In this document: positions 30,801 through 54,953 of the stretch, in pieces | Layout: the number at the start of each line of letters is the position of its first letter | Numbering within the stretch: position 1 is the first letter of the stretch | Assembly (NCBI GenBank): GCA_965219415.1 | Contig: CBDCNP010000002.1 | Location: forward strand, 4,736,001-4,800,000 | Origin: Candidatus Marinacidobacterales bacterium | GTDB lineage: Bacteria > Acidobacteriota > Vicinamibacteria > Marinacidobacterales > DATDRI01 | Reading direction: 5' to 3' | DNA: 64,000 bases | Notes under the pieces: model-generated | Told to the model about the DNA's origin: nothing | What the model saw: the letters and a program-made list of their open reading frames with translations, nothing else | Databases searched by the model: none | Program-made: the position numbers and the translations under genes

Positions 30801-32345
30801 TGTGCCTCCTATTTATTCATCCGCGCGCACCGAACTTGATTAGTCTCCGGTCTGCCGGCACCATGCCGGCATGATTTCGTCGTTTGTTCGCGCTCTCGTC
30901 TCTGCCTTCAAGGCTCGTCGCGAGCTGGCTCTCGAGAATGTCGCTCTTCGGTAGCAACTCGCCGTACTCCGCCGTTCGGTGAAACAGCCGCGGCTCTCGA
31001 AGGTCGACCGCGAGTTTTGGGTGCTGTTGCGGGTGCCTCCGCCATTGAAGTGTTGGTGAGATGACGCTAAGACTTTACGCTGCATTAAATTACAGCCAAA
31101 ATAGCGCTCGTGACCTTCGCTGCGCGCTAAGTGGTCAGCGCGCGAGGGAAAGTGCTGAGGACGAACTTCTCGGCGACCAGCCGAGTAACGCGAGCGACCA
31201 AGCTGACTCAGGCTGCCTCTCGCCACTCGTATCGATGGTGCAATCCACCGACTCGCGGCAGTGCGACTACTTTCGCCGTAGGAGACGGTCGGTGCGTGAC
31301 CGCTCTCAAGCTCGGTGTGTCCTTGTTCAGCCCCAAGTGGCAACGGTCCTCGTGATAGTAGCTGATGTAAGCTCGCACGAGCCGGATGAGATGACATGCG
31401 CCGAGAACCACGACGTGCTCAAGGAGCTCGCGACGGCAGCTGCCGACCCACCGCTCCGCAGTTCCGTTTTGCCATGGGCTGCGAAACGAAGTGCGAACGG
31501 GTTTTGTGCCCGTTGCTTTGATGAACTCGATGACCGCAGCGCTAAAGATGAAGTCGCGATCGAAGATGAGATATTTCGGAGCGGTGTCGTAGGGAAACGC
31601 CTCACGCAGTTGCTGAATAACCCAAGCAGACGTCGGTTGGAACGTGGCGTTGAAGTGAACGATGTGCCGACGGCCGTGCTCGATGACGAAGAAGCCGTAC
31701 AGCAGCCGGAGCGACGCGGTGGGCACGGTGAACAGATCCATGGCGGCGATATCGTCTTTATGGTTGCGCAGGAAAGCCATCCATCGCTTCAGCTGGTCGG
31801 GCTCCGCGGGACGCCGCGGTAGGTATCGCGACACCGTGATCTCGGAGATGATGAAACCGAGCTTGGTGAGCTCAGCATGGATGCGTGGCGCCCCCCAGCC
31901 GTCTTGCGCCATCGTGCGGACGAGGCGACGAATCTCGGCATCAATCCGAGGTCGACCGGGATGGCGGCGCTGCGAGATCTTTGCCCAGTACCGTCGGAAT
32001 CGGTCGCGATGCCAACGGGCCACGGTGTCCGCGTGGACGATGAGCAGGCGGCTCGCCCACACGGGCCACGAACCTCGAAGGGCAACCCAGAAAGCCCGTT
32101 CCGTGTCGTCGAGCGGTGGGCGTGGGCGCTCTTTCTTCAGCGCCGTCACTTGCTGCCGCAAAGCGACGTTCTCCAACACCAGGTCGGCGCGGCGCCGACA
32201 CATCGCCCGAATGACACGGACGCCAAGTGAGACGAAGAAGACAACAACGTTGAGCATAGCGGCGGAGTTTCGCCGTCTTCGGCCCGGAATTCAAGCGGAG
32301 CGTAAGTCCTTGATTTCGTGGGCGGAGCAGTATTGACGATGCACA
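30801..32345 (-). mobile_element. IS481-like rve element (TGT...ACA) with H-type right end and an internal MITE piece
   Basis: Left end TGTGCATCGTCAA; right end TGTGCCTCCTATTTATTCATCCG. Confidence 0.8.
31208..32257 (-). CDS. rve/integrase-core transposase
   Basis: AMDLFTV, LIFDRD, SPWQNGTAER; three full and two partial copies in the window. Confidence 0.9.
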   Translation of the reverse strand: MLNVVVFFVSLGVRVIRAMCRRRADLVLENVALRQQVTALKKERPRPPLDDTERAFWVALRGSWPVWASRLLIVHADTVARWHRDRFRRYWAKISQRRHPGRPRIDAEIRRLVRTMAQDGWGAPRIHAELTKLGFIISEITVSRYLPRRPAEPDQLKRWMAFLRNHKDDIAAMDLFTVPTASLRLLYGFFVIEHGRRHIVHFNATFQPTSAWVIQQLREAFPYDTAPKYLIFDRDFIFSAAVIEFIKATGTKPVRTSFRSPWQNGTAERWVGSCRRELLEHVVVLGACHLIRLVRAYISYYHEDRCHLGLNKDTPSLRAVTHRPSPTAKVVALPRVGGLHHRYEWREAA

Positions 32346-32830
32346 ATTTCACTTGGACTCCCCGTGGCGTAAATGTCGATCCGAGTGACCCGAGCAAACC
32401 AACCCTTCTCGAAGTGTTGTTGCGGTCGCCCTCGCCCACTCACTGTGCGACCAACATAAATGCACCGTTGGTCGGCCCAGAATATGTATATGCAGCTGTT
32501 ATAGCGAATGTTGTTACCGTACCAAATCTTGAAGTTCCTCTTTCGGGCGTCTATCCCCCATCCTTTGCCCCGTTTGGGGTGCCACTGCTTCTTTTGAACA
32601 TCGCTAGATCGGAAGTGCTGCTTAAAGGCAGCCGGACTTTTTGCCCGTGAATATATTTCTTTGAGTAGCTCTCCGGCTTTGCGGCGTCTAGCCTGTGAAA
32701 ACGAGAGCGAACGTCCCCGCGGTTTGCGAACGAGATGTCGCAGAACCGCCGTGCGAGACTTGTACAGTTGATCCAATTCCAGCTCGAACTGTTTCGCTGT
32801 CCTTTCAATCATCTTGGAACAACCCTCCAT
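32346..32830 (-). pseudogene. GIY-YIG-like nuclease, 3'-truncated
   Basis: CIYIFW...CIYVGRT...R.QQH; cut by the IS481-like end. Confidence 0.6.
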
Positions 32831-32971
32831 ACAGCCGCGTGCGTAGCCGCCGCCGAAAGGTTAACTTTCAGGTGCTTCTGCCATCAAGTGATGGAATGGA
32901 CTCCTCCACTGACATAGACGGCATCGATGTGCCAAAGTCAGTCGAATACGCATCGAAAAGGAGGAGTCCGA

Positions 32972-34003
32972 ATGAAAGATACGACAATCGCTGTGGATCT
33001 TGCAAAGAACGTCTTCGAGATTGCCATCTCGGGAGAAGCGGGGAAGGTGTCCAAGCAACTCCGTGTGAGTCGACCCAAATTGGTGTCGTTCTTTGCCAAA
33101 CAGAGCGCTGCCACCGTGCTTCTCGAAGCCTGCGGCTCGGCTCACTTCTGGGCAAGGACGTTCCGAAGGTTGGGACACGACGTCGTCCTGCTCCCACCTC
33201 ACCTCGTGAGGCCGTATCGACGCGGGAGCAAGAACGACCGCGCCGACACGAAGGCGTTGCTCGAGGCCTACAGGAACGAGGAGCTTCTTCCCGTACCCAT
33301 CAAGTCCGTGCACCAGCACACCCTCGCTGCGCTCCATCGCCTGCGCTCAGGATGGCTCTCCACACGGACCGCACGCATCAATGCCGTACGCGGGCTCCTG
33401 CGCGAACTCGGATTCATCATCCCAAAGGGCGCTCACTTCGTCGTGCCCGCCCTCTTCGAACTCGTCGAAGACGCTGATTCTGATTTGCCCGACGTGCTCC
33501 GTTCGCATCTCCGTGATGCCTGCTCCGAGATTCGAGAACTCAAGGACAAGTGCGCTAGCATCGAGCACGAGCTCAAGGCGCTCACCAAGCAGCTTCCTGA
33601 AGTCCAACGACTTCTCGCCATTCCCGGCATCGGACTTCTGGCCGCGACCGCCATCGTGGGCTTCGTCGGCGATCTTCGCCGCTTCCCATCGGGGCGCCGC
33701 TTCTCGAGCTACCTCGGCCTAGTTCCCAAGGAAAACTCCAGTGGCGACATTCGCCGCCTCGGACGCATCACCAAGCGTGGCGACTCCTACCTCCGTATGC
33801 TCCTCACCCAGGGCGGGCGCGCCGTGCTCCGCGCGGCGAACGTCAGCAAGAGCCCGCCCGACAAGCTCCGCGCCTGGGCTCGGAAGGTCCACCGCTCGCG
33901 GGGACACAACAAGGCCGTGATTGCTGTCGCCAACAAACTCGCCCGGATCGTCTGGGCCGTCTCCACCCGCGAGAGTGAATTCCAGTCGCCGGTGGCCGCT
34001 TAG
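32972..34003 (+). CDS. IS110 DEDD recombinase
   Basis: AVDLAKNVF, LEACG, KNDRADT, LGLVP..SSG, AVANKLARIVWA; AGGAGG RBS. Confidence 0.95.
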   Translation: MKDTTIAVDLAKNVFEIAISGEAGKVSKQLRVSRPKLVSFFAKQSAATVLLEACGSAHFWARTFRRLGHDVVLLPPHLVRPYRRGSKNDRADTKALLEAYRNEELLPVPIKSVHQHTLAALHRLRSGWLSTRTARINAVRGLLRELGFIIPKGAHFVVPALFELVEDADSDLPDVLRSHLRDACSEIRELKDKCASIEHELKALTKQLPEVQRLLAIPGIGLLAATAIVGFVGDLRRFPSGRRFSSYLGLVPKENSSGDIRRLGRITKRGDSYLRMLLTQGGRAVLRAANVSKSPPDKLRAWARKVHRSRGHNKAVIAVANKLARIVWAVSTRESEFQSPVAA

Positions 34004-34049
34004 ATTTAGAGGCTCCACTTTCGTGTTTTCCTTTTTCCCTTCCAAAAGA

Positions 34050-34235
34050 GGCTGCGACGATACCCATCCAACTGATGGCGTACCGGTCGGACCGGCGCGG
34101 GGTCAAGCCAATAGCAACACTGGCCCTAAGAGGTCGTTCAAAGTGATTGGCTCCTCGCGCGCGGATTTTCCATCATGGCCCGGAGCACCCAAGACGCTCC
34201 TCACTGAGGCCGAAGATACGTTTGCAGTCTGACCC
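34050..34235 (+). ncRNA. Putative bridge/seekRNA
   Basis: Two stem-internal-loop units; loops contain TAGCAACACT (target match) and TTCCATCAT (donor match); boundaries approximate. Confidence 0.75.
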
Positions 34236-34501
34236 ACTCGTCACGACGCGATGGATGCGCAGCTTCGATGGAAGATTTATTAAGAAAGGGGCGTGACTAG
34301 AAAGAAAGGGGCTTGACTAGAGGAGTCCAGATATGTTGCTAGGCCGCTAGAAGCATTTGAATGCGACCGCGTCCAATAAGAACATCGGCGCGCCTACAAA
34401 GCGTGATCTCTTCGGGCGTCTCGGTCTTATGAGCCGTGAGGTCAAGCACTTGCTCGCGCTCGGCCGGCGGATCCGAGAAGTCGGACGCTTCGCTCAGTGT
34501 T

Positions 34502-35182
34502 TCAAGAGCCCTTGAGATGTTTGCCGAAGAAAACCTGCACTCGGTTCCAGGCGTCACCTGCCGCGCTCGCGTCGTAGACGTCACGCTCGTCGTTGAAGAA
34601 CGCGTGGTCGACACCAGGGTAAATGTGAAAGTCGAGCGTGACCCCAGCGGTCTTCAGATTTCTCTCAAGCTCTCGCACCACGTCGGGGTTCACGAAGCTG
34701 TCGTTCTCGGCGAAAAGGCCGAGAACCGGAGCCTTTATAGCTTCTAGAACAGGCTTTACATTAGGATGAATGCCGTAGAAGTCAACGCAAGCCCCAACGT
34801 TCTCGTTCTTGCTCGCCGCGTACAATGCCAGCTGACCACCCATACAAAAGCCGATAATGCCGAGCCGACCTCCCGAAGAACGGCTCCCAAGATAGTCACA
34901 CGCACCGCGGAGATCCTTCTCCGCCCGATCGATGTTCAACGCCATCATGAGCTTCCCCGCGTCGTCGGGCGACGTAGTCTCTTTTCCGTGGTACAGGTCC
35001 GGTGCGAGCGCCACATAGCCGGCTGCGGCGAAACGGTCGGCCACGTTCTTGATGTGACCGACGAGACCCCACCATTCCTGGATGACGATCACCCCTGGAC
35101 CACCGCCTTCGGGCTCGCTCAGATAACCTTGAGACGAACTGCCGTTGGCCACAAACTCGACGATGGTGCCTTTCTCGGACAT
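34502..35182 (-). CDS. Dienelactone hydrolase family
   Basis: VIQEWWGL, GFCMGG, HAFFND. Confidence 0.92.
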   Translation of the reverse strand: MSEKGTIVEFVANGSSSQGYLSEPEGGGPGVIVIQEWWGLVGHIKNVADRFAAAGYVALAPDLYHGKETTSPDDAGKLMMALNIDRAEKDLRGACDYLGSRSSGGRLGIIGFCMGGQLALYAASKNENVGACVDFYGIHPNVKPVLEAIKAPVLGLFAENDSFVNPDVVRELERNLKTAGVTLDFHIYPGVDHAFFNDERDVYDASAAGDAWNRVQVFFGKHLKGS

Positions 35183-35644
35183 GGATGCCCTTTCTCTGGA
35201 TGCCAGCGTGCGAGCTGCGATCCTACCGCCAACGGAGGATATTGCAAGCCGAATGAAGATCGTGTATTGGCGGGCGGACAACCATGAGAGCGAAGTCCCG
35301 CGAACTCGTCTTCGACGCGGTGGAAATGTCGCCGCCGGGCCCACGTTCATAAGACGCCGGTGGTGTCGTCGGGTCGACCTGCACGAGGCAGCCGATCATG
35401 GAAGGTTTAAACGGCGCGAGTAACGCCGGACCGATCTTTTGCGGAGCACAGGCATCCCTTCGTTCAATAACCGGTGCTTCCGCAATTAAGTGTTGGCGGC
35501 CAGCCCCTAACCGGTCTGCGCGCTAGAGTTTGAACCAGAATTCCGAAGACACAGTTCTCTCATCGTCAGGGCCGAGCCAAAGTGAAGAATCGCAGATGTC
35601 TCAATCCCGTCCTGTGCCAAAACTCGACCCTTTTGAAATAGACC

Positions 35645-35863
35645 GGTGCTCCCGCCATCAAGTGTTGCTACGCCGTGTTTGAATGCTAATGTCAGCTGGC
35701 CTGCCTGTGTCGGCGTGCACACGAAGGTGCCCCTGAACGTCAGGCACCGTGTGGTCAGCCCAGCCCGCATCGCCGAAAGAACTGCGTCTCTCGAAATCAG
35801 GCTCGAACTCTAGCACACGAGCGGGTTACGCGGCAGCCACCAACACTTGATTGCGGAAGCACC
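35645..35863. mobile_element. MITE 'E', deletion derivative of an IS1-family element; empty IS1111 target
   Basis: Both TIRs present; interior encodes AGLTTRCLTFR, like the C-terminus of the 38475-39542 transposase. Confidence 0.82.
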
Positions 35864-35912
35864 AGAAGGTCTTGCACAGTACGAGGACGGATCCGGCTGT
35901 GAAGCTGAGGAA

Positions 35913-38078
35913 CTAGCCAGGAGCCGGCTTGTCCCGCTTCTTCGTGGGCTCGAACCTTAAAGGGACGCGGCCAGTCCGAGCAGTGGTTTTCGGTTTTGTG
36001 GGTTGCCTGTTCTGGGGTCTTGCTCGTCGTTCGTGTAGCCGTCGGAGCACCGAGTAGAAGTCTTCCTGCATCCGGACCGACTTGTTGCCGGGGGTGCGTT
36101 GGTAGCGATTGTCAAGCGTCTGATCGAGGATGCGGACCTTGGTATTGTCCTCCCACTGAAGGTCTAGAAACGACTGCAGCTCGTTCTGAAGTGAGGTGTC
36201 GTAGATGGGGACACCCACCTCAACTCGCCCGTCCAAGTTTCGTGGCATCCAGTCCGCCGATGAAATGAAATACTTGGGTGCTCCGCCGTTACAGAAAACC
36301 ATGATACGGGAGTGCTCGAGGTATTTGTCTACGATACCCATTGCCTTGATCCCATCGGCTCGTTCCACCTCATCGGGTAGCATCGAGAACATTCCTCTTA
36401 CGTTCAGTCTCAGTTTCACCCCCGCATCGCACGCGTCGTAAAGAAGGCCGATGAGCTCGGGATCGGTAAGATTGTTGAGCTTCAAATCGATGAACGCTTG
36501 GCGACCTCGGCTGGCATTCTTGGCCTCATTTCGAATCAGCTTCGCCAACCGCGGGCGCACGTTGAAAGGAGAGACGATCAAATGCTTATAGGCATCAACC
36601 GGGTACTTGCTTTCGAAGAAATCGAAAATCGTACGAACCTCCCGCGTCAACCGGCTGTCAGCAGTCAGTAAGGCATGGTCGCTGTAGATCTTCGTCGTGT
36701 CCTCGTTGAAGTTTCCCGTTCCGACAACCGCACAGTAGAGCGTTTGGCGCTTCACTCTGCGCTCAATCAAGCATAGTTTCGAGTGGACCTTGAGCTCAGG
36801 GACGCCATGGATGACGCGAACGCCCTCGTCTTCGAGCCGGTTTGCTAGCTCGATGTTGGTCATTTCGTCGAAACGGGCCCTCAGCTCGATGACCGCCGTG
36901 ACATCCTTGCGGTTTTGCACCGCGTTGATGAGGGCGTTAACCACCGCAGAGTCTCTCGCGATCCGATAGAGGGTCGTCTTTATCGAGGTCACATACGGGT
37001 CGATGGCAGCTTCTCTGAGAAGCGCGACCACAGACTCGAAAGACTGATAGGGAAAGTGGAGAAGCACGTCTCGTTTGGCTACCGTAGTAAGGAAACTCCC
37101 CTGCGAACTCAAATGTCGGTTCGCGAGTGCAGAGCGAGGTTCGTCCCGTAACGAGCTCGACCCAACACGTGGGAACTTCATAAAGTCTTTGAAGTTGTGA
37201 TACTTCGCGCCCGGAATCAAAGTATCCTGCCTCGTCAAGCGGAGCTTGCTGGTCAGAAATTTCAGCAGCGGTGGCGATATGTCAGCATCATAGACGAAAC
37301 GGACCGGAGCGCCCTGCGTTCTTTGTTTCAAGCTCTTGGTGACTTTGCGGATGTAGCTCTCCGAGAGATCGCTTTCGATGTCAAGCTCCGCGTCTCGAGA
37401 GACTTTGATTGTGAATGCCTCCAACCGGTCGACGTTCAGGAGAGAAAAGATGTCGCCCAAACAGAATCGGATGACATCATCGACCAAAATGATGAAGTAA
37501 TCGCCGTTCGGAGACGGCAACTGCAAAAACCTTTCTGAACCGCTCTGGGGCACTTCGATGAGCGCATATTTGGCCTTGACCACGCGAGCTCTCTCGGGAA
37601 ACAAGATCGCCAAATAGATCGATTCGTCACGAAGCGTCGGGAACTTGTCCCGAGGGTGGAGCATAATGGGCATCAATTTGGAGCGTAGGTGGGTCTGGAA
37701 GTAGTCTCTGACGAACTCCCCTTGTTCGCTAGTCAATTGCTCGTTGTTGACAATAAAGATCCTCTCTTTGGCCAACTCCTTCAGAACCTGGTTATACGTC
37801 GCGTCGAAATCTCGATGCAGGGCCAGCGACGTCTCTTGGATCTCCTTCAGTACCTTCTTTGGGTCGTATCCCAAGATCCGTCTGGCTTTCTTCCTTAGCT
37901 GCGCGATACGTCTCAGAGTGGCCACCCGGACACGGAAGAACTCGTCAAGATTGGAGGAATAAATTCCCAAGAACTTGATGCGCTCCAGTACGGGAACGTT
38001 AGGGTCGGCGGCTTCTTGGAGGACCCGGGCATTGAAAGAGAGCCAACTCAGCTCCTTGGCCCGAAGATTCGTCTTCAT
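35913..38078 (-). CDS. ppk1: Polyphosphate kinase 1
   Basis: ELSWLSFNARVLQEA, LLHFPYQSF, KVHSKL, GTGNFNE, SSADWMPRNL. Confidence 0.96.
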   Translation of the reverse strand: MKTNLRAKELSWLSFNARVLQEAADPNVPVLERIKFLGIYSSNLDEFFRVRVATLRRIAQLRKKARRILGYDPKKVLKEIQETSLALHRDFDATYNQVLKELAKERIFIVNNEQLTSEQGEFVRDYFQTHLRSKLMPIMLHPRDKFPTLRDESIYLAILFPERARVVKAKYALIEVPQSGSERFLQLPSPNGDYFIILVDDVIRFCLGDIFSLLNVDRLEAFTIKVSRDAELDIESDLSESYIRKVTKSLKQRTQGAPVRFVYDADISPPLLKFLTSKLRLTRQDTLIPGAKYHNFKDFMKFPRVGSSSLRDEPRSALANRHLSSQGSFLTTVAKRDVLLHFPYQSFESVVALLREAAIDPYVTSIKTTLYRIARDSAVVNALINAVQNRKDVTAVIELRARFDEMTNIELANRLEDEGVRVIHGVPELKVHSKLCLIERRVKRQTLYCAVVGTGNFNEDTTKIYSDHALLTADSRLTREVRTIFDFFESKYPVDAYKHLIVSPFNVRPRLAKLIRNEAKNASRGRQAFIDLKLNNLTDPELIGLLYDACDAGVKLRLNVRGMFSMLPDEVERADGIKAMGIVDKYLEHSRIMVFCNGGAPKYFISSADWMPRNLDGRVEVGVPIYDTSLQNELQSFLDLQWEDNTKVRILDQTLDNRYQRTPGNKSVRMQEDFYSVLRRLHERRARPQNRQPTKPKTTARTGRVPLRFEPTKKRDKPAPG

Positions 38079-53488: not shown

Positions 53489-54953
53489 CATATCTGGACT
53501 CCTCTAGTCACGCCCCTTTCTTTCTAGTCACGCCCCTTTCTTTCTAGTCACGCCCCTTTCTTAATAAATCTTCCATCGAAGCTGCGCATCCATCGCGTCG
53601 TGACGAGTGGGTCAGACTGCAAACGTATCTTCGGCCTCAGTGAGGAGCGTCTTGGGTGCTCCGGGCCATGATGGAAAATCCGCGCGCGAGGAGCCAATCA
53701 CTTTGAACGACCTCTTAGGGCCAGTGTTGCTATTGGCTTGACCCCGCGCCGGTCCGACCGGTACGCCATCAGTTGGATGGGTATCGTCGCAGCCTCTTTT
53801 GGAAGGGAAAAAGGAAAACACGAAAGTGGAGCCTCTAAATCTAAGCGGCCACCGGCGACTGGAATTCACTCTCGCGGGTGGAGACGGCCCAGACGATCCG
53901 GGCGAGTTTGTTGGCGACAGCAATCACGGCCTTGTTGTGTCCCCGCGAGCGGTGGACCTTCCGAGCCCAGGCGCGGAGCTTGTCGGGTGGGCTCTTGCTG
54001 ACGTTCGCCGCGCGGAGCACGGCGCGCCCGCCCTGGGTGAGGAGCATACGGAGGTAGGAGTCGCCACGCTTGGTGATGCGTCCGAGGCGGCGAATGTCGC
54101 CACTGGAGTTTTCCTTGGGAACTAGGCCGAGGTAGCTCGAGAAGCGGCGCCCCGATGGGAAGCGGCGAAGATCGCCGACGAAGCCCACGATGGCGGTCGC
54201 GGCCAGAAGTCCGATGCCGGGAATGGCGAGAAGTCGTTGGACTTCAGGAAGCTGCTTGGTGAGCGCCTTGAGCTCGTGCTCGATGCTAGCGCACTTGTCC
54301 TTGAGTTCTCGAATCTCGGAGCAGGCATCACGGAGATGCGAACGGAGCACGTCGGGCAAATCAGAATCAGCGTCTTCGACGAGTTCGAAGAGGGCGGGCA
54401 CGACGAAGTGAGCGCCCTTTGGGATGATGAATCCGAGTTCGCGCAGGAGCCCGCGTACGGCATTGATGCGTGCGGTCCGTGTGGAGAGCCATCCTGAGCG
54501 CAGGCGATGGAGCGCGGCGAGGGTGTGCTGGTGCACGGACTTGATGGGTACGGGAAGAAGCTCCTCGTTCCTGTAGGCCTCGAGCAACGCCTTCGTGTCG
54601 GCGCGGTCGTTCTTGCTCCCGCGTCGATACGGCCTCACGAGGTGAGGTGGGAGCAGGACGACGTCGTGTCCCAATCTTCGGAACGTCCTTGCCCAGAAGT
54701 GAGCCGAGCCGCAGGCTTCGAGAAGCACGGTGGCAGCGCTCTGTTTGGCAAAGAACGACACCAATTTGGGTCGACTCACACGGAGTTGCTTGGACACCTT
54801 CCCCGCTTCTCCCGAGATGGCAATCTCGAAGACGTTCTTTGCAAGATCCACAGCGATTGTCGTATCTTTCATTCGGACTCCTCCTTTTCGATGCGTATTC
54901 GACTGACTTTGGCACATCGATGCCGTCTATGTCAGTGGAGGAGTCCATTCCAT
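53489..54953 (-). mobile_element. IS1111-group element, copy 2
   Basis: Near-identical to copy 1; same target position. Confidence 0.93.
53841..54872 (-). CDS. IS110 DEDD recombinase
   Basis: Same protein sequence as 32972-34003. Confidence 0.95.
   Translation of the reverse strand: MKDTTIAVDLAKNVFEIAISGEAGKVSKQLRVSRPKLVSFFAKQSAATVLLEACGSAHFWARTFRRLGHDVVLLPPHLVRPYRRGSKNDRADTKALLEAYRNEELLPVPIKSVHQHTLAALHRLRSGWLSTRTARINAVRGLLRELGFIIPKGAHFVVPALFELVEDADSDLPDVLRSHLRDACSEIRELKDKCASIEHELKALTKQLPEVQRLLAIPGIGLLAATAIVGFVGDLRRFPSGRRFSSYLGLVPKENSSGDIRRLGRITKRGDSYLRMLLTQGGRAVLRAANVSKSPPDKLRAWARKVHRSRGHNKAVIAVANKLARIVWAVSTRESEFQSPVAA

Follow-up and report, generated by a model that had tools for sequence, protein, structure and literature searches.

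An IS1111-group insertion sequence with a predicted bispecific guide RNA in a Candidatus Marinacidobacterales genome

For the IS1111 members ISEc11, ISPa11, ISKpn4, and ISPst6, Siddiquee et al. (2024; PMC11187229) reported a seekRNA that derives from the noncoding region downstream of the transposase gene, copurifies with the transposase, is essential for transposition, and can be reprogrammed. As described there, the 5' side of the seekRNA complements the top strand and its 3' side the bottom strand, with the two overlapping at the central dinucleotide; an 82-nt seekRNA was sufficient, and the role of the 145- to 170-nt form was left open. The same report ascribes the motif GL-P----S(t)G to IS1111 transposases. 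In IS621, a target loop and a donor loop have been defined, with a strand order opposite to that of the IS1111 seekRNAs (Durrant et al. 2024; PMC11208160), and that publication also describes the subterminal inverted repeats of IS1111 elements as being 7 to 17 bp long with short terminal extensions and predicts, for 93% of these elements, a bridge RNA located in the right end. As reflected in these publications (PMC11208160; Hiraizumi et al. 2024, PMC11208158), structural and mechanistic work has mostly dealt with IS621, an IS110-group element.

Here, we describe an element in a 64,000-nt stretch of Candidatus Marinacidobacterales DNA (referred to as the window, whose coordinates are used throughout) that is very probably an active-looking IS1111 insertion sequence (IS) with a recombinase guided by an RNA of approximately 150 nt from its own 3' noncoding region (34081 to 34234). 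The locus is a clean new example of the system described in 2024, the principle of which is already known. Like ISEc11, ISPa11, ISKpn4, and ISPst6, it combines a DEDD recombinase of approximately 340 amino acids, containing the GL-P----S(t)G motif, with subterminal inverted repeats and a long downstream noncoding region; as in the IS1111 seekRNAs described in PMC11187229, the match to the top strand lies 5' of the match to the bottom strand, the two overlapping at the insertion point, and as in the case of ISPa11, the target is a repeat. It differs from those elements in its host phylum (Acidobacteriota, with relatives in Candidatus Marinacidobacterales MAGs) and in its target, in that its RNA is predicted from sequence whereas theirs was purified, and in having a second module that matches both IS ends, with covariation. 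The features discussed below are collected in the table.

Table. Features of the IS, its predicted RNA, and its surroundings in the window
Feature	Position	Strand	Evidence or remark
Left half of target repeat (GGTGCTTCTGCCATCAAGTG), central TG at its end	32871-32890	+	32 listed left junctions
Whole IS1111-group insertion sequence, 1445 bp	32891-34335	+	BLAST copies and empty-site comparison
Left end: 6-nt extension ATGGAA, then left subterminal inverted repeat TGGACTCCTC (32897-32906)	32891-32906	+	10-bp inverted-repeat pair
Candidate junction-promoter -10, TGGAAT	32892-32897	+	Sequence reading, putative
Recombinase gene, 343 aa, preceded by AAAGGAGGAG	32972-34003	+	Pfam, NCBIfam, motif reading
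Predicted structured RNA (bridge RNA/long seekRNA)	34081-34234	+	Covariance-model match, 149.7 bits
Closing helix, 5' strand CGGAC (partner GTCTG, 34227-34231)	34088-34092	+	Helix 1; 5/5 pairs changed on both sides
Target-module outer stem GCGCGGGG (partner 34153-34160)	34095-34102	+	Helix 2
Target-module inner stem AGCCAAT (partner ATTGGCT, 34146-34152)	34106-34112	+	Helix 3
Target guide, loop 1, 5' side, TAGCAACACT; complements top strand AG-TG-TTGCTA	34112-34121	+	
Loop-1 hairpin GGCC-CTAAGA-GGTC	34122-34135	+	Helix 4; 97.3% of cells paired
Target guide, loop 1, 3' side, GTTCAAAGTG; AAGTG in left-target sense, pairs with bottom strand (predicted)	34136-34145	+	
Donor guide, loop 2, 5' side; TTCCATCAT (34168-34176) complements joined ends A-TG-ATGGAA	34164-34176	+	
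Donor-module stem GGCC/GGCC and inner hairpin GGAGC...GCTCC	34177-34212	+	Helices 6 and 7
Donor guide, loop 2, 3' side; AGATACG (34214-34220) in right-end AGATATG sense	34213-34222	+	
Tandem repeat of approximately 20 bp, two units	34285-34319	+	Sequence reading
Candidate junction-promoter -35, TTGACT, in last tandem unit	34313-34318	+	Sequence reading, putative function
Right subterminal inverted repeat GAGGAGTCCA, then terminal GATA+TG	34320-34335	+	Inverted-repeat pair
Right half of target (TTGCTAGGCC)	34336-34345	+	Junction comparison
Unoccupied target copy CCATCAAGTGTTGCTA, 1.3 kb from the IS	35655-35670	+	Sequence reading
Second copy of the IS within the window, 1465 bp; RNA at 53610-53763	53489-54953	-	Covariance-model match

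The recombinase is of the DEDD/S(T)G type and matches Pfam PF01548 (E 7.8e-12) and PF02371 (E 3.4e-24) as well as the NCBIfam equivalog NF033542, "IS110 family RNA-guided transposase" (302.9 bits, with a cutoff of 140). In a 20-homologue alignment, E52, D89, D92, S256, and G258 were invariant, position 9 (D9) was an aspartate in 18 of 20, and residue 257 was a serine in 16 and a threonine in 4 of the 20; residues 249 to 258, GLVPKENSSG, correspond to the GL-P----S(t)G motif. A sequence search of the PDB returned ISCro4 9t56 and IS621 8wt6 (E 9e-8), both of which align to the C-terminal domain only. Noncoding DNA extends over 332 nt downstream of the gene (34004 to 34335), compared to 81 nt upstream (32891 to 32971). 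On the basis of both Pfam domains, the NF033542 match, the subterminal inverted repeats, and this long downstream noncoding region, the element at 32891 to 34335 is assigned to the IS1111 group of the IS110 family, and every sequence-level hallmark of the seekRNA/bridge-RNA kind of IS1111 element was found in it.

Because an uninterrupted target copy is available at 35655 to 35670, the boundaries of the element could be fixed; since TG is present at both junctions, its extent might equally be written as 32889 to 34333. The IS starts with ATGGAATGGACTCCTC (from 32891) and finishes with GAGGAGTCCAGATATG (to 34335), so that its ends, when joined, read AGATATGATGGAA, and its 10-bp subterminal inverted repeat consists of TGGACTCCTC and GAGGAGTCCA, inset by 6 nt from either end. 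The left flank finishes with CCATCAAGTG at 32890, and the right flank begins with TTGCTA at 34336. Throughout the 8.05-Mb, three-contig genome, we found 25 full-length copies (query 1 to 1445, 99.4 to 100% identity) in addition to truncated ones; near-identical copies number approximately 31, and 31 copies of the RNA are present. All 32 listed left junctions share GGTGCTTC(C/T)GC(C/T)ATCAAGTG, and the listed right flanks carry TTGCTA in 28 of 29 cases and TTGGCG in the remaining one; as strings, occupied junctions occur 32 (left) and 30 (right) times in the genome, and the empty 16-mer CCATCAAGTGTTGCTA occurs in 75 exact copies. Given the uniformity of the junction flanks and these 75 empty 16-mers, the dispersed repeat was identified as the site of the element, with insertion, at all listed junctions, into one sequence (CAAG-TG-TTGCTA) and in a single orientation. 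One IS copy elsewhere (C3:5105456) is inserted in a TTGGCGG variant. Downstream of the IS in the window, three target-type repeats lie within 400 bp (35470 to 35870), namely, a variant (AATTAAGTGTTGGCGG) near 35490, the exact empty copy at 35655 to 35670, and an inverted one near 35840; an open reading frame on the minus strand (34502 to 35350, 282 amino acids; likely start, read from the sequence, near 35183) is found just downstream of the IS.

Within this element, the initial annotation had read the strings of a bispecific guide RNA, and all the strings that it named are present at the positions given for them (e.g., TAGCAACACT at 34112 to 34121, TCAAAGTG at 34138 to 34145, and TTCCATCAT at 34168 to 34176), as are the stem GCCAAT (34107 to 34112)/ATTGGC (34146 to 34151) and the inner hairpin GGCC (34122 to 34125), CTAAGA, GGTC (34132 to 34135). 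As claimed, TAGCAACACT is exactly complementary (10/10) to the target junction AGTGTTGCTA, which spans the insertion point, and TTCCATCAT is exactly complementary (9/9) to ATGATGGAA, a string formed only where the right and left IS ends join. The proposed resemblance of TCAAAGTG to the left-target sequence TCAAGTG stood in part: it requires a one-base bulge, and the ungapped match is AAGTG, i.e., 5 nt. The two target guides, at 34112 to 34121 (against AGTGTTGCTA) and 34141 to 34145 (against AAGTG), overlap on AGTG. On the donor side, AGATACG (34214 to 34220) agrees with the right end, AGATATG, at 6 of 7 positions, with one base different, just as had been noted. The 3' loop strand of module 1 has the sense of the left target half plus TG, so that the bottom strand would be its pairing partner; for module 2, complementarity to TG plus the left IS end is found in the 5' loop strand, and the 3' strand has the sense of the right end. 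Chance was gauged with 5,000 first-order Markov shuffles of the noncoding region, 21 of which matched the complement of the 25-nt target over at least 10 nt and 80 of which matched the complement of the 26-nt end junction over at least 9 nt; none had both matches.

The predicted RNA (34081 to 34234) consists of two stem/internal-loop modules enclosed by a long-range closing helix. RNA folding and covariation across homologues were among the checks named in the initial annotation. In the minimum-free-energy fold of 34060 to 34240, the target strings face each other across one internal loop and the donor strings face each other across a second; the z-score of -2.3, with 4 of 200 shuffles equally stable, represents a modest advantage by fold alone. 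A search of Rfam with 32000 to 36500 (E up to 1) returned no family, the sole match being a chance hit to mir-1910 inside the gene.

A homologue search with one genome per species gave 70 loci, including many partial matches; most are from Candidatus Marinacidobacterales MAGs, with 89 to 100% identity over the best aligned segment. Among 401 Acidobacteriota genomes searched, 36 contained homologues (E up to 1e-30), from which 40 stretches were taken. The homologous noncoding regions could be aligned across the whole RNA, the stems being conserved or showing compensation and all four loop strands varying. Using 17 sequences and a structure set by hand, we built a covariance model, which located 45 RNA places, each downstream of a recombinase gene and on the same strand. 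Matches outside the training set (L100, L102, and L107 to L122; E 1e-5 to 1e-24, these E-values being rough) include elements with recombinases only 33 to 38% identical, and overall, the RNA scaffold is kept downstream of homologous recombinases of 33 to 98% amino acid identity. Across 29 distinct rows, 89.8% of the cells were paired, versus 76.6% after shuffling and 32 to 41% with slid partners, and two-sided (compensatory) changes were seen in 24 of 37 base pairs, with 0 of 500 shuffles reaching any of the five measures; the alignment behind these counts was fitted to the structure of the model and, as such, favors that structure. Helix 2 has two-sided changes in all eight of its pairs (93.2% of cells paired), and helix 7 has them in four of five. 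RNAalifold, run on a plain MAFFT alignment, independently recovered the same helices, except for the inner hairpin of the donor module; of the 30 pairs, 12 were compensated.

This architecture resembles that of the IS621 bridge RNA, as described in PMC11208160 and PMC11208158, in being bispecific, with target- and donor-binding internal loops, in that each loop reads both strands with guides overlapping on the central dinucleotide, and in the presence of a promoter at the joined ends (here a candidate read from the sequence). It differs in its reversed strand order, in its core (CT in IS621, TG here), in the long-range helix enclosing both modules, and in the protein, for which the alignment covers the C-terminal domain only. 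According to PMC11208160, the donor nucleotides of many IS1111 members lie in a multiloop, whereas those of the present RNA lie in a simple internal loop.

If the loop strands are guides, they should change with the flanks of the element that carries them, and on this point, the failure of which the initial annotation had named as a refutation, the 5' target guide follows its own right flank. Permutation tests were based on 17 sequences, with 11 elements with different targets used per test: the 5' guide test left out L031, L086, L098, and L096 (target class already represented) as well as L104 and L106 (right flank unusable), and the 3' guide test left out L031, L086, L098, L096, and L104 (class already represented) as well as L084 (no left flank). 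For the 5' guide against the core plus right flank (Watson-Crick pairs only), the mean run was 7.2 nt for cognate and 3.4 nt for noncognate combinations, a difference reached in 0 of 100,000 permutations; for the 3' guide against the noncore left flank, the corresponding values were 4.2 and 3.1 nt (73 of 100,000 permutations), these permutation figures overstating significance somewhat because kin are not independent. When wobble pairs were allowed for the 3' guide, 4,249 of 100,000 permutations reached the observed sum, an unconvincing signal. Weak fits of the 5' guide were found in L101 and L084, with runs of 4 nt each (9 nt in L084 if wobble is allowed), and in L103, with a run of 5 nt, and weak fits of the 3' guide (runs of 2 to 3 nt) were found in L083, L101, L029, and L106.

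The clearest case of natural retargeting is L029, with a recombinase 94% identical and a noncoding region 83% identical to those of the window IS, guides ATAACAATCG and CAGCG, and flanks CTCCAGTG/ATTGTTAT; a comparable pair of close relatives, ISEc11 and ISXne4, is reported in PMC11187229. Similarly, L099 has guides CTAGGAGCG and CTCGGACG and flanks CTCGGATG/..CGCTCCTAG, and L088 has guides ATAGCAGCC and TCACCACG and an empty site TTCACCACGGGCTGCTA; for the L088 type, the guides predict TTCACCA-CG-GGCTGCTA as the empty site, and this sequence is present in the host genomes. In a remote clade, G186 combines the guide TCGGCGCAG with the right flank CGCCGA, and G349 and G381 combine the guide CCCGCGCAG with the right flank CGCGGG. 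The predicted empty site CTGGG-TG-CGCCGR was counted 536 times in G186, versus 54 times for the reversed control; the empty-site pattern searches in G313 and G356 found none. In G325, the siblings L117/L118 and L119 (97% identical DNA) differ at both target-guide strands (TGCGGGCGG and GCTCAAGCG in L117/L118, CGTGGAGGG and GCACAAGCG in L119) and also in their right flanks. The guide of L119 does not fit its own right flank; L117 to L119, whose left ends lie beyond the part of G325 that was taken, were excluded from the counts.

The donor guides also vary along with the IS ends. Among the homologues, the 3' donor guide matches the right end in at least seven variant classes: AGATACG in most elements, AGATATG in L031, ATATAGG in L103, TATACG in L107, ATACACG in L051, ATACATGC in G186, G349, and G381, and ACACACGAC in G325. 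The 5' donor guide follows changes of the left end in L088 (ATGAGA with TTCATCAT) and L101 (GG-ATGAAG with TTTTCATCC) and fits over just 4 to 5 nt in L103, L104, and L106, with the 5-nt TGACA/TGTCA as its sole fit in L103 and L105. We also considered, and rejected, a "handshake"-like continuation of the 3' donor guide into the right flank: matches occur in the window element, L031, L101, and L119, but most relatives have AC at this place regardless of the flank.

The TG core proposed in the initial annotation applies to the window element, in which empty sites and both junctions have TG, but it is not a rule for the family, because the IS-borne and target dinucleotides differ in relatives. There, the left junction always has the dinucleotide of the element itself, which is TG or, in the G186 clade, TA, and the right junction has that of the target (CG in G309, G294, and G348; CA in G164; TG in G186); the empty targets of relatives (G309, G385, G393, G294, G348, G164, and G186; L083 to L116) have CG, CA, or TG at their center. 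This also accounts for the 6/7 donor match, since the conserved guide AGATA-CG equals the right junction for CG targets, and the target here has TG. Moreover, the two donor guides differ at the first position of the dinucleotide, where T on the top strand is read by the 5' guide and C, corresponding to G on the bottom strand, by the 3' guide. We consider it conceivable, if on balance doubtful, that donor and target can differ in their central dinucleotides in this Acidobacteriota IS1111 clade. If this is true, it would be compatible with strands crossing over directly 5' of the dinucleotide or with a heteroduplex circle junction, both of which would deviate from IS621, where the CT core is strictly shared.

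How far the second module acts as a guide deserves separate consideration, since the case for a donor-guide function is less firm here than that for module 1 as a target guide: in ISEc11, a short seekRNA lacking the second module sufficed for transposition, and what the long form does is left unsettled in PMC11187229. It might be, then, that only module 1 (34095 to 34160) is a guide, with module 2 serving as a scaffold for protein binding or processing and the ends being recognized by protein via the inverted repeats. The 82-nt seekRNA of ISEc11 alone was reported to support transposition better than the 154-nt form (PMC11187229), which would suit this explanation, as would the one mismatch of the 3' donor guide with the window IS's own end (6/7), the poor fit of the 5' donor guide in L103, L104, and L106, and the donor-loop sequence itself, which is mostly near-invariant in the main clade and therefore offers few independent changes. 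We nevertheless regard it as unlikely, given that the 3' donor guide changes along with the right end in at least seven variant classes across clades and the 5' donor guide follows the left-end changes in L088 and L101; furthermore, the 9/9 match spans a junction of the ends that exists only in the circle, and donor-binding nucleotides are predicted for IS1111 members in PMC11208160.

Far more improbable, in our estimation, is that the noncoding region acts as DNA, providing recombinase binding sites or a terminator, and that the matches are due to chance or to a captured fragment of the target repeat. The target is indeed a repeat, fragments of which could be captured, and no Rfam family matches the region (32000 to 36500, E up to 1). 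However, pairs of the RNA type, G-U included, are kept by compensatory changes (24/37), the guides follow the flanks (0/100,000 permutations), and no terminator-like site was found on the plus strand. Elements whose targets are unrelated share a conserved scaffold on either side of the 10-nt guide, so that similarity to the repeat does not extend beyond the guide itself. The proposal of an IS110/IS1111 recombinase with a bispecific guide RNA is supported by family membership, structure, and the covariation of guides and DNA.

A promoter scan of the integrated copy found no sigma-70-like sites, and the circle-junction string CAGATATGATGGAA does not occur in the assembly; TTGAC/TTGCG is kept directly before the right inverted repeat in homologues. 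By analogy with published IS1111/IS110 systems, the bispecific RNA reading would entail excision of the IS as a circle, in which the joined ends would form a promoter (TTGACT, 18 nt, TGGAAT), the central TG serving as its extended -10 element, from which the recombinase gene and the RNA would be cotranscribed. In the recombinase-RNA complex, base pairing would then connect module 1 to the repeat (CAAG-TG-TTGCTA) and module 2 to the joined ends (AGATA-TG-ATGGAA), and strand exchange at TG would result in insertion in a single orientation.

A search of sequencing runs yielded 20 with matches, three of which are recorded as RNA; four runs, one of them RNA by guess, were compared. Since they are mostly 90 to 99% alike, the contigs from RNA runs were assigned to relatives. 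In X19, a 152-nt assembled contig, which carries no strand or end information, is identical over 33907 to 34058. A contig in X18 (likewise without strand information) matches 34082 to 34102 and 34206 to 34232, with 99 other letters in between, a pattern that would be expected of a related RNA with different loops.

The right end of the element also varies in the number of its modules. The unit of approximately 20 bp (GAAAGGGGC(G/T)TGACTAGA...) directly before the right inverted repeat differs in copy number, with two units in the copy at 32891 to 34335, three in the copy at 53489 to 54953 (53500 to 53560, minus strand), and, as suggested by overlapping BLAST pieces, one in close relatives; the -35-like hexamer of the last unit reads TTGACT in the first copy and GTGACT in the second. 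Tandem extra modules comprising the RNA gene and the right end were found in the genome of the window IS itself (G000:C3:3315125-3316853), where two RNA copies are present at this place, and in relatives L013, L021, L022, L026, L027, and L038. L013 has up to four RNA copies, and one of its junctions consists of the right end, CG, and an internal site of the noncoding region. These tandem modules are reminiscent of Ssr9, a module of ISPpu9 that is separately mobile (Pares-Guillen et al. 2025; PMC12288879). Compared by description only, ISPpu9 shares with the present element its membership in the IS110 family, repeat targets, an RNA gene downstream, and extra copies of the RNA module (here in one genomic IS and several relatives). 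It differs in that Ssr9 is reported there to be dispensable for transposition and a selfish module and in that, according to the same publication, no hybrid promoter arises in ISPpu9 circles.

The IS110/IS1111 family supplies RNA-guided recombinases that are under development for the break-free insertion of large DNA. The element described here provides a natural set of the IS1111 type, with one recombinase, one predicted RNA, and all four guide strings readable, and a single genome offers approximately 31 occupied and 75 empty target sites. Comparative leverage comes from the sibling L029, with its 94% identical recombinase and other guides and flanks, and from a scaffold kept down to 33% identity. 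Finally, the variation of donor guides with IS ends lends comparative support to a reading of the IS ends by the second module of the long IS1111 RNA, a role left open for ISEc11 in PMC11187229.
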